From Octopus vulgaris (Eukaryota), in NCBI GenBank assembly GCA_951406725.2, contig OX597822.1, positions 27,714,001 to 27,778,000 of the forward strand: a stretch of 64,000 nucleotides of DNA, read 5' to 3'. The translations under genes and the position numbers were made by a program. Within the stretch, counting starts at the first letter, position 1. Every line of letters begins with the position of its first letter. Below are positions 2,015-48,322 of the stretch, piece by piece. The notes below the pieces were generated by a model. It was not told the origin of the DNA and did not search any database. It worked only from the letters and a program-made list of their open reading frames with translations.

Positions 2015-2140
2015 CATTTTATTTCCTCGTGTTCGTTTCTGTTGAAGAGTGTAGGCTAGAAACGTAAAATACTTTCTCACATTCCCGAGCGTCAAACTAA
2101 TACACATGTATTCGTCTTTTGCTTTTCTGTGAATTTCAAC
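2015..2140 (+). mobile_element. Short PLE-like terminal element, family A, with variant hammerhead motif
   Basis: TTT-CTGTTGA-AGAGTGTAGGCTA-GAAAC-GTA-AAA at 2036-2069; homologous to 4925-5118, 5862-6090, 15356-15520 and 36662-36848; ends in (TA)n. Confidence 0.6.
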
Positions 2141-2367
2141 TATATATATATATATATATATATATATATATATATATATATATATATATATATATATATA
2201 GATATAGATAGATATATATAGATAGATAGATAGATAGATAGATAGATAGATAGATAGATAGATAGATAGATAGATAGATAGATAGATAGATAGATAGATA
2301 GATAGATAGATAGATAGATAGATAGATAGATAGATAGATAGATAGATAGATAGATAGATAGATAGAT
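2141..2367. repeat. (TA)n + (GATA)n compound microsatellite
   Basis: Direct reading. Confidence 0.95.
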
Positions 2368-2376
2368 GTAGATATA

Positions 2377-2520
2377 TCAGAGAAAGCACATAAATGCGAA
2401 ACAAGGTGGAACAAAATAATACTCGAATACCGGAGGTAGAGTAATATGTTTTATTCAAAAAGCTGCAAAGGTATTACAAAAAGTGTTAGTTTCACTTCCC
2501 GTTCTTCAGACAGCTTTAGT
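2377..2520 (-). mobile_element. Short PLE-like element, family D, with partly deleted HHR
   Basis: Homologous to 23978-24185. Minus strand TGT-CTGAAGA-ACGGGAAGT-GAAAC-TA-ACA at 2484-2513, with stem III deleted. Confidence 0.55.
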
Positions 2521-3407
2521 TTTTTAACAGTATAGTTACATACATACATACATACAATATATATATATATATATATACATATATGAGTGTATGCATAATT
2601 GACATGAATATTCATGTATACGTAGGTAACTGAACGCTTAATGCATGTATGTCTAGTGCATATAATGTTGAAAGTACGGGCGTGTGTGAGAGTTCCCACC
2701 AGTTTGCACGTTGTCTGTCTTTTAGCAAGGCAATAAATTTCACGTCGCTCCTGTGGACTTGGGTGAAATAAATGAAACAAATTTACTGTGCTTAACCTTG
2801 CAGCTGATTATATAACGTTCAGAGTTTTGGCCAGTAAACTCAATCACTTACATACTTGGGTATCTAGTATACGCTCCAGCTTAATGAAACTGCAGAAATA
2901 AGGCCTAATAAGTATTAGAATGTTCATGCATGTATGTAGAGTGGGAGCTGGGTGTTTGCAGCATATATCACCTTCTACTTGAGATGTCATCTCGATGTAA
3001 CATTCAGAGAAAGGAATTTTAACCTTCACAAACGAGTCAAGTACTTTTCTGCGTAACAAAAAACGATGACATATATATGCATGCATATGTATATGTATTT
3101 AGTTGTGTGTCTTTGTATGTATGCATGTATGTGTGTATGTATATATCTATATATATATATATATGTGTGTGTGTATGTGTATGTGTGTATGTGTATGTGT
3201 GTGTGTGTATGTATATATATATATATATATATGAGTTAGCATATATATACGTAGACATATATATTAAGGTTTGTATGTGGATTCGTGTTTTAATTGGAAT
3301 AGTCTCTAAAAGATTTCTAACGTTGATTCTTCATACTTTACTTTGAATTTACTGATGTAAATTGGCGTTGATATGAAAGGTTATATAAGTGTATTAAGTA
3401 TTCAATT

Positions 3408-3633
3408 TAAGTTATAGAAAGAAGTTCCACAAATTCAATCATATTTTTCGTAAATGGAGGAGATTAGATGTTAATATGGAAAAAAATCATTTCGCTATAT
3501 GACCGTTTCGTCCAGAGAGACAATAAAATCATGTAAGAAATTAATAAAATATATTTTTGTTCCATATTAACGTCTAATCTCCTCCATTTATGAAAAATAT
3601 GATTGATTTTATCGAACTTCGTTCTATAACTTA
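3408..3633. repeat. Degenerate fold-back inverted repeat (~80-bp arms) with half-HHR spacer
   Basis: 3408-3488 is the reverse complement of 3553-3633. The spacer on the minus strand reads GTC..GAC-GAAAC-GG-TC-ATATA. Confidence 0.7.
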
Positions 3634-3988
3634 TGTCATATACTTAATATAATATATATATGAATATTTATATATATATATATATATATATATATATATA
3701 TATATATATATATATATATATAATAAATTGAGGGAGATAAATTAATATTAATTTTAATATCAATTTAAAACCAGTAGTCCAGCATTCAGAAAATCTGAGG
3801 AGTCAGAGAAAATTCAAATATATGTGTATATTGGTAGGGCTGGCCTGCTAGGTAGCCGGCCAGAATGCTAGAAATAGATAATAAACGATCAAACTACAAG
3901 GGAAATTCTCTAGAGGAAGAATTCAGCGAACACCAGAACCAAATTTGGCGGGCAGGACATATGAAAAATTAAATAAAAAACAGACTTA

Positions 3989-4064
3989 AATGCATACCTC
4001 GGTTTCGGTCTTAACAAAAGAATTACTTGCATAATTCAAGTGTCCGTGACTTCTTCAGTACATT
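3989..4064 (-). ncRNA. Type I hammerhead ribozyme (mirror copy in left arm)
   Basis: Reverse-complement copy of 4400-4475. Confidence 0.75.
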
Positions 4065-44977: not shown

Positions 44978-45038
44978 CTCTACTGAAGAAGAATATATCC
45001 TTTATACGGATTAATTTCGAAATTGATTCAATATAGAG
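44978..45038 (+). ncRNA. Type I hammerhead ribozyme (predicted, intact) in a ~260-bp insert between (TA)n
   Basis: CTCTA-CTGAAGA-AGAA..ATCC..GGAT..TTTC-GAAA-TTGA-T-TCAA-TA-TAGAG; stem I CTCTA/TAGAG; AUA cleavage triplet. Confidence 0.8.
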
Positions 45039-45679
45039 ATAACGAAATTTAAATTTTCTAAAGGTTAGTTGCCCGCTTTCATTTCAATTTTCCAGTAACA
45101 AGTGGATTATAAGTGGATTAATCAGTGTATTGGCTATAGAATAACCTTCTTTAGCCCTTAATTATAAGATGTATGTATATATATATATATATATATATAT
45201 ATATATATATATATATAATCCATTCTCTATTATGTTAAGTTGTTTTGAATACCAACGCTAGTGACTTTCTGGAAAAACATGAATCAGATTTTGCTGATTC
45301 AAAAGAATAAAAAGGTAAGAAAGAAATTTCGTGATTGGCAAAAATGGGGGTTATTTCAATGGCTATTGGAAGTGCTTAATTTCCTACAACTACATTCTAG
45401 CGCTGACTATGCATTTTATTCAAACCTACTCATATAAAATGGTAAAATTCATTCATACGTATACCTGCACTATAAATACAGTGATTTTAATCAATACAAG
45501 TAATCTTACATCTTAAACAAATCATGGGCAATCAACTAGGATAATAAAACAACAGGATAAAATGGTAAATTCATTGTTCCTGGAAAGATTGAGCTACATA
45601 ATGTTTTTAATTGTCTCTGCGTAATATCTCTACAAGTACAAACACTTATAGCGAATCCATTCAACATTTCAAATGAAAA

Positions 45680-46450
45680 CCCCGTACTCGAACTTCCACC
45701 ATTTCTTTGTTCCCCAAATTCACAAACCAGACAATCCCGGTCATCTTATCATCTTCTCCTGTAACTACCCTACTGAACTTCTCAAAATCGTACATTGACA
45801 AAATGTTATCACAACTCGATGCTTTACTCCCACAGATTAAAGACACCTACAATGTCCTGAACCTGATCAACTCGCTCTGTTTTCCATCTGGGGAGTCAAA
45901 ACTCGTTCACACTATGGACATTAAATCACTCTAAGCCAGTCATGCCCTCAACAAGGGCTTATCAGCTCATAAACACTTCCTTGACCTTTTCCTCCTACTT
46001 ATATCCAGCAGTACAACTTACCTCCTGTTAAGAGAGCACGTCCTAATACTTAATATTTTTACTTACTCTGGAGAATTTAAAAAACAACTCAGCTTATTGC
46101 AATAAGGCCTAGGATTGGCTCCAATTATGCAATTCCCTTTCTAGACCACATTGAAAAGTCAGGTTTTTGTTAAATTTATCAGAGGCCACCCGAACTGTAC
46201 GGTCGTTATATAGGCCACTTTGTCGGTGCTACTGTTTTCATCAGATAGCAACTGGACAGTTTTATTTCCTACGCTAACTTCTTTCATCCTGCCTTGGAAC
46301 TTGCATCCTCCGTATCCAATATATCCTTTAGTTATCTTTCGATATCGCCATCATTATATACAATACTCATCTGTCCCCTTCTTCTCACGGCAAGAATAAC
46401 GATTCGAACTTCTATCCCCAGTTCTCTTCTCATCTCAAATTCAAAAAAAT
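45680..46450 (+). pseudogene. Penelope-like element reverse transcriptase, decayed
   Basis: With frameshifts: PK.HKPDNPG..I...NYPTEL...YIDKML..L...QIKDT..VLNLI...TMDIKSL*..NKGLSA.KHFLD..PELYGRYIGH (YIDD position)..ANFFHPALE; these are PLE RT motifs. Confidence 0.82.
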
Positions 46451-46639
46451 TATCATACTTTGTATCAGTTCATCAAAAAACACGGCATGCAGTGAGATAG
46501 AAATATCACTTAATATACACAGTAATATGAGCTACTAATATTTTCATGCCAGAAAAAACAATAATTCGGCAGATTTATTTGACTCGCCTCATGGTTCCAA
46601 GCAATCCTTTAGACTCAATTTACATGGCTATTTTTATTT

Positions 46640-48085
46640 TAAAAAACATTGGTGCTGGTCTTTGATAAACCACGAGAAAAGACGAGAAGGTGATTGATGT
46701 AAAAAGGGGAACCAGAAAATAAAAAGTGAATAAAAACCGAGAAAGAAAGAAATCATAATTGATCCAACGGGTGTAGAATAATTCTATGGTAGGGAGGCCA
46801 AAATCTTCAAAACAGCTGCTGAATCCGTCATCAAAAGAGATTTGTCCATGTGCTCGAATTTGCTTATAGTTTCGAATCTGGAGTTGTGTGGTGTGGTGGG
46901 ATCCTTGGAAGTAAAATCAATGTGGCAAATCTTTTAGATTGCATCACTTCTATCCATTTATATAACGATAATCCAGTTGAGTATACATGGCGTGCAGCTG
47001 GTCATTGGGTCCCCTGCATGCCTAACCAATTTAGTGGCTCTACTTTTGTTGATGTGTCAGAAAGAAGGCTGGTGGCTTTCATGTCGTTTTGAGCATCGCC
47101 CTCGTATAAACCGACGTAGTTCTTTCGATTACGATATTTTGGAGAATTTCTGTGATTTTGACTTCATAATCAATTCAGTTTATCAAACACGCCTGATCTT
47201 CAAGGTCTCCCCAATCAGAATTAAAAATGTGCTCTCAGCGTGGATTGCGTGTGATAACATCCTTCTAAGTGTGTCAGCAGCTGTATTAATTTTCATCGAG
47301 CGACTATTAAACAATTTCCTGTATTTATGGCTTACTTTGAAATGCTTATCCAATAATGCCAAGAATTTTTAGTCTATGTCAGTTTTACGCTTAAATCAAT
47401 GGACTGGGCCATATTATTGTCCTATGTCTATTTCTAGGTTTCATATTTGTAATTGAAGTGTTGAAAAATATCTCATCTTCGAAACCGCTCTTGCCAGGGC
47501 ATTGTTGAGTAGGGGCTTGATTTATCAAATATTTGTTTTGGACAACAGAGATTAAATATCCTATTACCAATTGTTGGCTACCGGGTTTTTATACACTATA
47601 GGGGTTGACAGAATTTTTTATGAGTATATATGAGATTCTCAAACGGTTTATGATTGGGTTTATAAGTGTACGAGTTATATTCTACGGAAGCATCTGAAAA
47701 CTCACCTTTGGACACATTAATGCTTACAGTAATTTTCAGGCCTACTTGATTGAAGGTATGTATTAATTTTTTTTCCTAAATTTATCAGGTGTATGTCTAT
47801 TACATTAATATATGTTAAAATTACCGTAACGGTATAGGTCAATATCGGGGAATGGCAACTTCGATCCCAATGTAACTCGTATTTCAGTCTCAATGGGTTT
47901 AAAATTATTAAAACTTTTTTATCGCTGAAATTAGATTTGTGATTTTTTTAAGTAATGAAGTGTCTCTTATCGCTAAGGATTGTAACCTAATAGCCATTTA
48001 CTTCGTTTGGGTAGTTCAATGTATTCATCTGCGTTAACTTCCTTGCAATTTGTGGCAGCAACATCTACTGTTAGTAGCTCATATT
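46640..48085 (-). pseudogene. Second decayed Penelope-like element (RT C-terminus + GIY-YIG region)
   Basis: Minus strand EIRVTLG.KLPFPDI (47841-47885; cf. PLE I.FT.E...LPFLD) and downstream IGETL.IR (47204-47215; cf. YIGET); heavily decayed; abuts (TA)n. Confidence 0.55.
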
Positions 48086-48134
48086 TACATACTGTATATA
48101 TATATATATATATATATATATATATATATATATA

Positions 48135-48322
48135 TTTCAACAATTGAGGGTAAAATTAATTAATTATTAATCAATTTCACCAAGTGTTCAGTATGCAAAG
48201 GGACCATTTAAGGCGAATTCAAATTATTACATTATATAAAAGGGCTTAGTAAAATAAATTACTTTGCCGCATACTGAAGTATGCGGCAAAGTAATTTATT
48301 TTACTAAGCCCTTTTATATAAT
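48135..48322. mobile_element. HHR family C 3' end with terminal fold-back, in (TA)n
   Basis: 48135-48275 is an inverted copy of the family C 3' end; perfect 45-bp hairpin 48231-48275 / 48278-48322. Confidence 0.8.

Follow-up and report, generated by a model that had tools for sequence, protein, structure and literature searches.

Hammerhead motifs at (TA)n tracts in an Octopus vulgaris locus: 3′ ends of Penelope-like elements and short non-coding tandem units

A stretch of Octopus vulgaris DNA (assembly GCA_951406725.2, contig OX597822.1, positions 27,714,001 to 27,778,000) carries many short motifs shaped like hammerhead ribozymes in or beside (TA)n microsatellites. The whole stretch, 64 kb of AT-rich DNA inside a 2.8-Gb assembly, is called the window below, and positions are counted from its first letter. 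The locus raises three questions. Are the motifs more than chance matches, what kind of elements carry them, and how were these elements inserted? We find type I hammerheads at the 3′ ends of Penelope-like elements (PLEs) and in short non-coding tandem units, all of which end at (TA)n. Judging from sequence, both kinds were probably inserted by Penelope-type proteins with reverse transcriptase (RT) and GIY-YIG endonuclease domains, and cleavage is predicted.

Seven intact type I cores, each with CUGANGA, GAAA, NUH and three helices of which helix I is open, were detected in the window by a descriptor that tolerates a mismatch or bulge at position 10.1. In 150 local dinucleotide shuffles the mean was 0.06 and the maximum 2, and the reversed sequence gave 0, so that the excess over shuffled sequence expected by the original prediction is clear. 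All seven are among the ten full motifs that it had claimed; the other three, at 20039, 24115 and 24792, carry core changes, and a full type I core is likewise absent at 23713 and in family A. A stricter first descriptor, requiring pairing at 10.1-11.1, recovered none of the seven in the window and gave one weak match, and the final descriptor was therefore tuned on the window itself; in several window families the 10.1/11.1 position is a 1x1 mismatch, either A-C or A-A. No hammerhead family stood among the matches listed (150 of 247) in an Rfam scan of the window, which were mostly microsatellite-like microRNA models.

Could the motifs be chance matches in AT-rich repetitive DNA? The tuning of the descriptor would favour this, as would the fact that CTGANGA by itself is not enriched in the window (27 versus 23 ± 5). 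It was examined against a blind sample of 60 stretches at round coordinates (599,900 bases), with a descriptor slightly looser than that of the first window count. The sample gave 11 intact cores versus 1.0 in shuffles, and the window still gave seven. One restricted core pattern, searched across the whole genome, had 18,316 matches versus 1,524 for its reversed control, a 12-fold excess. Moreover, copies of family H (listed further below) that were collected by a downstream anchor have helix changes that preserve pairing. Window shuffles, blind sample and genome-wide reversed control together refute the chance explanation, to which we assign almost no probability.

The first 100 listed matches of the restricted pattern comprise many different families, and with the excess over controls this indicates a hammerhead population that is large and diverse, as had been proposed. 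The proposed density of one motif per 4 kb does not hold as a genome figure: the sample gives an estimate of about 47,000 intact cores (21,000-87,000), or about one per 55 kb. The window is about six times denser than the 600-kb sample (p about 0.001), a contrast inflated by the tuning of the descriptor on the window.

The predicted enrichment next to (TA)n was tested and confirmed, and it is one-sided, being confined to the 3′ flank. The window has 84 (TA)n tracts of at least 12 nt. Such a tract lies within 300 nt downstream of all ten window motifs (background 20%), of 36 of 39 distinct incidental motifs (background 27%), which are partly dependent since some belong to one family, and of six of seven motifs in the blind sample (background 17%). 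Upstream the count for the incidental motifs is 14 of 39 (p=0.17). All families terminate at (TA)n, exclusively at their 3′ side.

The carriers are fewer and of more than one kind than the "at least eight unrelated non-coding mini-elements" first described. A single insertion provides the motifs at 3989 and 4400, one in each arm, and those at 17678, 20346 and 32566 belong to one superfamily (69-77% alike), so that the ten motifs reduce to seven lineages, or nine when family A and the motif at 23713 are counted. Four families are 3′ pseudo-long-terminal-repeat (pseudo-LTR) ends of coding PLEs, two of them Hydra-like (G and H2) and two Neptune/Nematis-like (A and I). The window copies of G, H2 and I, with a further Neptune-type end, are as follows.

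15949-17075, minus strand: family G, 5′-truncated 3′ untranslated region or pseudo-LTR of a Hydra-like PLE
16054-16131, minus strand: type I hammerhead of family G, intact core, palindromic helix III
19943-20202, unstranded: family H2, a young Hydra-like PLE represented by a short and a long 3′ end in inverted arrangement
20039-20101, plus strand, and 19972-20034, minus strand: H2 variant hammerheads, with U4C and an extra U before G12
24608-24957, unstranded, left boundary approximate: family I, inverted pair of Neptune/Nematis-type PLE 3′ ends
24792-24832, plus strand: variant hammerhead of family I, with A9C
23585-23648, minus strand: extreme 3′ end of a Neptune-type PLE, 95% identical to the end of a coding copy in locus L152

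Longer copies of G and H2 extend upstream into Hydra-like open reading frames (ORFs), and those of A and I into Neptune/Nematis-like ones; the proposed link to PLE pseudo-LTRs is thus borne out family by family, with coding partners for G, H2, I and A. Copies of all four families are 5′-truncated, partly tandem or inverted, and have a tail at one end. The 717-aa frame of H2 is complete, with RWK, DKT, CxCX5C, CxxC and CxH in a repeat unit of 2,589 nt, and its last 154 aa are identical in 150 of 150 scored copies. This ORF has no match among solved structures and a weak one to the Neptune ORF (22%, E 1e-6). Comparison of translations with Craig 2021 shows DKT, the CxCX5C linker, and CxxC and CxH around E and N in both G and H2. 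The G copies seen are 5′-truncated and longer than 3 kb; their ORFs gave no convincing Pfam match, and the assignment of G rests on motifs. Pfam support is weak for the family I ORF (E 0.03); a CX4CxxC linker and motifs resembling GIY-YIG are present in the ORFs of both I and A. A GIY-YIG search returned 148 matches among the best 150 scored, many of them within an intact 781-aa frame. This Neptune-type protein combines RT, a CX4CxxC linker and GIY-YIG with clear Pfam support for RT and endonuclease, and its family is flanked by (TA)n tracts and has a pseudo-LTR and a U3-A8 hammerhead in its 3′ end. The names Hydra-like for G and H2 and Neptune/Nematis-like for A, I and the 781-aa family are assigned on motifs rather than on a tree, and are provisional in that sense.

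Compared with the Hydra clade as described in the available text of Craig et al. 2021 (PMC8557442), the octopus elements share RWK (seen in H2), DKT, CxCX5C, CxxC/CxH, a C-terminal GIY-YIG, (TA)n targets and a hammerhead near the 3′ end. They differ in that the H2 hammerhead is non-canonical, that its near-identical copies are many, and that tails are about 70 nt rather than 30-40; H2 at 2,589 nt fits the clade size of <3 kb whereas G exceeds 3 kb, the likeness being judged by motifs. With Neptune/Nematis PLEs the shared features are RT, a CX2-5CxxC linker, C-terminal GIY-YIG, pseudo-LTR and (TA)n flanks, and the 781-aa family differs in an overlapping upstream frame. This frame, of 479 aa and with no clear Pfam match, overlaps the start of the RT frame at L144:1267-2703 (also in L145 and L148); a second ORF or frameshift is unusual among endonuclease-bearing PLEs as far as the available literature describes them. 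A decayed Hydra-like RT/endonuclease remnant, 26-32% identical to the H2 protein, lies on the minus strand at 46832-47775.

The second kind of carrier comprises three non-coding units.

3721-4638, unstranded, ends approximate: family D, a single insertion, inverted, of the 546-nt unit, flanked by (TA)n tracts; the long 3′ end is on the left arm and the short one on the right
3988-4065, minus strand: type I hammerhead of the family D left arm, intact core
4399-4476, plus strand: type I hammerhead of the family D right arm, intact core, predicted cut after 4469
17093-17942, unstranded: family E, a 564-nt unit inserted in inverted, rearranged form and lacking about 80 nt internally
17678-17738, plus strand: type I hammerhead of family E, intact core, 8-nt palindromic helix III
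20230-20602, plus strand: E-related element with an intact hammerhead at 20343-20429
32467-32907, plus strand: E-related element, hammerhead at 32565-32626 with one helix I mismatch
48136-48314, unstranded: family E inverted pair cut off downstream of the hammerhead (ribozyme gone), one long and one short end
44916-45175, plus strand: family F, 5′-truncated copy of a 486-nt unit, short 3′ end
44978-45038, plus strand: intact hammerhead of family F

The D, E and F units have one hammerhead each, and their longest ATG-initiated ORFs are 64, 30 and 32 aa. They occur both dispersed and in tandem; hammerheads stand in up to four consecutive units in D and in two in E, and the one F tandem seen has one base next to the core changed in that unit. 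GC content is 33-39%, and circular folding gives z of -4.1 to -4.8 against 25 shuffles. The proposed link to non-LTR retrozymes is thus upheld for D, E and F, which are non-coding tandem units with a type I hammerhead each, low GC and a paired circular fold. These features, and the coexistence with PLEs, are shared with metazoan non-LTR retrozymes as described in the available text of Cervera 2020 (PMC7229834) and Li 2026 (bioRxiv 10.64898/2026.07.22.740005); the units of 486-564 nt are larger than the typical 150-450 nt of the former and within the 51-972 nt range of the latter. PLE tail, inversion and (TA)n targeting, which the octopus units show, are unreported for retrozymes in the available text of both. 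Family D is present in 19 sequencing runs, all contigs and none recorded as RNA, 14 of them guessed to be so; four of the family D runs give cover without joints or start and end pile-ups, features that contigs cannot show. An 81-nt segment at 20804-20884 matches the family D tail region at 80%.

How were these units inserted? In each family the 3′ ends fall at two fixed sites, 55-110 nt from one another, the 5′ ends vary and inversion is frequent, the two-end rule being uncounted for A. Mapped on the unit, the two sites of D, E and F are about 95-110 nt apart and both abut (TA)n; their arms are often longer than a single unit, reaching 3.9 units in D. Insertion ends do not coincide with the predicted ribozyme cut: in D, E and F they almost never lie there, one D arm ending 4 nt from it. 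In inverted insertions with both ends standard, counted by hand, one arm has the long end and the other the short end in 47 of 47 cases (13 D, 14 E, 8 F and 12 H2), which means that the non-coding units and a coding Hydra-like element obey the same rule. Work on the green anole showed that PLE proteins nick the two strands of AT-rich DNA, and that the tail is defined by two internal sites of the RNA at which they start (Frangieh 2024, PMC11167929). That element, Poseidon PAc, has in common with the octopus families the two internal RT start sites, AT-rich targets and ends independent of the hammerhead cut; in vitro it showed no strand difference in start site, whereas here each inverted event has one site per arm.

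The same insertion structures bear on two other origins for D, E and F. The units might be decayed PLE pseudo-LTRs that local unequal crossing-over made into satellites, or else DNA elements resembling miniature inverted-repeat transposable elements (MITEs), with terminal inverted repeats. Tandem arrays do exist (at loci L008 and L030), many insertions resemble inverted-repeat elements between TA tracts, and local amplification is described in the available text of Li 2026. However, multimers that are 98-99% identical lie scattered across many contigs; they have fixed 3′ ends, variable 5′ ends and arms of unequal length, and they follow the long/short rule seen in the coding Hydra element. The fixed terminal inverted repeats and fixed length of a MITE or DNA transposon were not found in these insertions, whose arms are unequal and variable and have different 3′ ends. 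We consider this origin improbable.

Mobilisation by a long interspersed nuclear element (LINE) is the other possibility. A 433-aa RT frame (Pfam RVT_1, E 7.5e-24) lies between long (TA)n tracts on the plus strand at 33190-34491; we take it to be CR1-like. A fragment related to it is at about 55112-55669. Beyond the presence of this RT, a LINE would be favoured by the fact that no PLE partner, among the seven coding elements compared, was matched to D, E or F by sequence. The two-site tail is nevertheless described as unique to PLEs in the available text of Frangieh 2024, and the sole chimera found contains a Neptune arm, so that a LINE is in our view very improbable as the driver. In this chimera (L332:4624-7395), a 5′-truncated Neptune-type arm with a U3-A8 hammerhead is joined to an inverted E arm, with (TA)n on both sides. 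PLE ORF matches were otherwise found in 1 of 30 D, 3 of 30 E and 2 of 20 F loci versus 6 of 60 random stretches; a third F locus matched the upstream frame, and L332 has the sole direct PLE junction.

Insertion by Penelope-type proteins is the preferred explanation, and for D and E the multimeric insertions themselves provide evidence on the template. Successive passes of the D unit diverge by 0.43% within an insertion versus 0.98% between insertions, and 10 of 22 insertions have a variant that is in all their own passes and absent from every other copy. In E the values are 1.05% and 2.8%, and private shared variants are found in 4 of 20 insertions.

From Frangieh 2024 and the mobilisation hypothesis of Cervera 2020, the following course may be proposed. 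A PLE protein dimer would nick both strands of (TA)n DNA and prime reverse transcription at two internal RNA sites, with the far site used on one strand and the near site on the other in inverted insertions. This machinery would be used in trans by the D, E and F RNAs, either circular or left as uncut multimers, and copying would continue beyond the length of a single unit. The role of the hammerhead would be to turn transcripts into monomers or circles, for which it would probably act as a dimer or need help from a protein; it would not set the insertion ends.

Several observations weigh against this picture. In F the rolling-circle test was negative, with no within-insertion signal (2.9% versus 3.1%) and private variants in 0 of 8 insertions. 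A three-base variant of D recurs in 4 of 25 loci and differs between passes or arms in three of them, a pattern which argues against one monomer circle being sufficient without recurrent mutation, conversion or two templates; since the change would improve pairing with the nearby core, template-switch mutation is a possible source. Of 30 E loci only L332 is chimeric, and, apart from its junction and a weak 27-nt match in F, the D, E and F units share no 3′ sequence with the seven coding elements compared. The count of 47 leaves out inverted insertions with a non-standard end (4 D, 4 E, 1 F and 1 H2) and complex or separated loci, and the copies analysed are top-scoring matches rather than a random draw. 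As to cleavage, free minimum-energy folds of single motifs mostly miss the active three-way fold, and eight of nine Xenopus retrozyme dimers were uncleaved in vitro (Li 2026).

Whether the hammerheads need to cut at all is best considered with family A, a Neptune-type PLE whose motif has every hammerhead element except for a U at position 6. Its window copies are as follows.

2018-2140, plus strand: family A 3′ end, hammerhead-shaped motif with A6U at 2035-2071
4921-5094, minus strand: family A copy, motif at 5008-5046
5855-6003, minus strand: family A copy, motif at 5957-5993
15363-15518, minus strand: family A copy, motif at 15446-15482
36651-36845, minus strand: family A copy with decayed core

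Genome-wide, position 6 is U in 17,610 exact copies versus A in 226 and C or G in 497. Position 7 takes all four bases, and partial tandem structure is seen. Changes at position 6 leave activity low according to the available text of Perreault 2011. A literature search for A6U cores shared throughout a family found none described; Lunse 2017, which deals with variant PLE hammerheads, may describe such cores. Non-canonical cores are also prevalent in other families: U4C with the extra U before G12 is family-wide in the young H2 (52 of 52 motifs read), and A9C is common to 17 of the 20 nearest copies of I, the other three having A9. Most H2 copies moreover contain, in loop II, a six-base stretch complementary to the first core strand that could block the ribozyme fold (20045-20077 in the window).

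These cores, together with insertion ends that ignore the cut site, favour the view that the hammerhead is largely a structural or protein-binding signal whose cleavage is weak or dispensable, a view that is compatible with a PLE origin and concerns function only. It agrees with the anole PLE, in which cleavage depends on the protein and hammerhead mutants insert normally in vitro (Frangieh 2024). On the other side, A and H2 are free to vary at position 7 but hold the remaining core positions, and the intact Neptune element has a compensatory U3-A8 pair, both as expected if catalysis is still under selection; D, E, F and G keep canonical cores. We regard a largely non-catalytic role as possible but rather doubtful. 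Family A provides a natural test of the need for cleavage in PLE hammerheads.

A wider proposal would join both strands of evidence, and we put it forward tentatively, as quite possible if short of probable. D, E and F may be circular-RNA parasites of PLEs, for which the dimer would prime at two sites about 100 nt apart, strictly one for each nicked strand, roll round the circle and be able to load two different RNAs at once, as in the Neptune-E chimera. Certain PLE lineages, among the most successful here, may at the same time spread with non-canonical hammerheads (A6U, U4C with the extra U, A9C), their fold kept as a protein-assisted or non-catalytic signal.

How much of this is new? The novelty first implied for the whole system does not stand, since PLE hammerheads, palindromic helix III, U3-A8, (TA)n targeting and the tail are all published. 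Cervera and de la Pena 2014 (PMC4209133), in its available text, describes palindromic helix III, the U3-A8 pair, high family diversity and opposite-strand pairs. The octopus motifs share with those minimal hammerheads the short palindromic helix III, an extra nucleotide near 10.1 and the U3-A8 variant, and also many divergent families per genome, mostly single truncated copies, and opposite-strand pairs 100-700 bp apart. They differ in the 1x1 mismatch at 10.1/11.1 of several families, where a clean bulge is reported there, in the family-wide A6U core, which that text does not describe, and in estimated numbers above its 2,000-9,000. Craig et al. 2021 reports (TA)n targeting, inversion and the tail at one end, and its supplement lists an octopus family, Hydra-1_Obim (2507 bp, (TA)n), as well as cephalopod Naiads at (TA)n. 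In the available text of a squid genome paper, 235 hammerhead matches are counted. The main text of a recent octopus repeat annotation lists active Penelope families and never mentions ribozyme, hammerhead, retrozyme, Hydra or Neptune. In the literature searched we found neither the full PLE insertion signature on non-coding units, the 47-of-47 long/short rule, a Neptune-retrozyme chimera nor the U6 core of family A.

The finding is a rich instance of a known system, and what it adds is genomic evidence on an open mechanism together with testable variants. Mobilisation of animal retrozymes by PLEs through circular templates is stated as a hypothesis by Cervera 2020, and Li 2026 calls the mobilisation mechanism unresolved, both as given in their available text. 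Our results support the published hypothesis, with self-cleavage predicted. Both of its halves are here in a young state: the Neptune-like and Hydra-like ORFs are intact, and the retrozyme-type units that bear the PLE insertion signature are 98-99% identical. Because they coexist, the in vitro assay already published for a PLE could test the hypothesis directly. How a PLE dimer can use its two start sites is further limited by the one-long-one-short rule.

The remaining hammerhead-like features of the window are these.

23979-24185, unstranded: family H, inverted pair, hammerhead at 24106-24161 (plus strand) with G5C
2369-2521, minus strand: decayed family H relative, core at 2472-2512, helix III broken
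23668-23840, plus strand: family J, U3-A8 variant hammerhead at 23713-23753, in which GTAA replaces GAAA in this copy
14658-15049, unstranded: inverted pair, each arm with only the GAAA-CCGG-TC half of a possible hammerhead
3395-3646, unstranded: old palindrome with one GAAA-CGG-TC half motif near 3500 (minus strand), a candidate hammerhead remnant

G5C is confined to the window copy of H, other copies being canonical or U4C. Among the loci examined, a coding partner was found for neither H nor J. The remnants listed in the original prediction fared unevenly: 2484 is a decayed relative of the family at 24115, 23713-23753 is a U3-A8 variant and family A has A6U, whereas 3500 and 14668 have only the GAAA-palindrome-UH half, no copy with the first half being present in the 1.34 Mb examined. 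Additional palindromes or inverted pairs in which no hammerhead was detected, most of them flanked by (TA)n tracts, lie at 20657-20768, 22661-23323, 26189-26242, 31678-32241, 32270-32439, 34888-35261 and 56997-57231; they are possibly truncated PLE ends. One abundant family comprises a 185-bp tandem repeat and dispersed copies (62518-63000, 983-1206, 5555-5783 and 18478-18689), and a second abundant dispersed family, of about 350 nt, is found at 10566-10920, 25582-25971 and 60259-60714. Finally, a 400-nt inverted pair, 80% alike and 2 kb apart, occupies 50632-51031 and 52965-53366.

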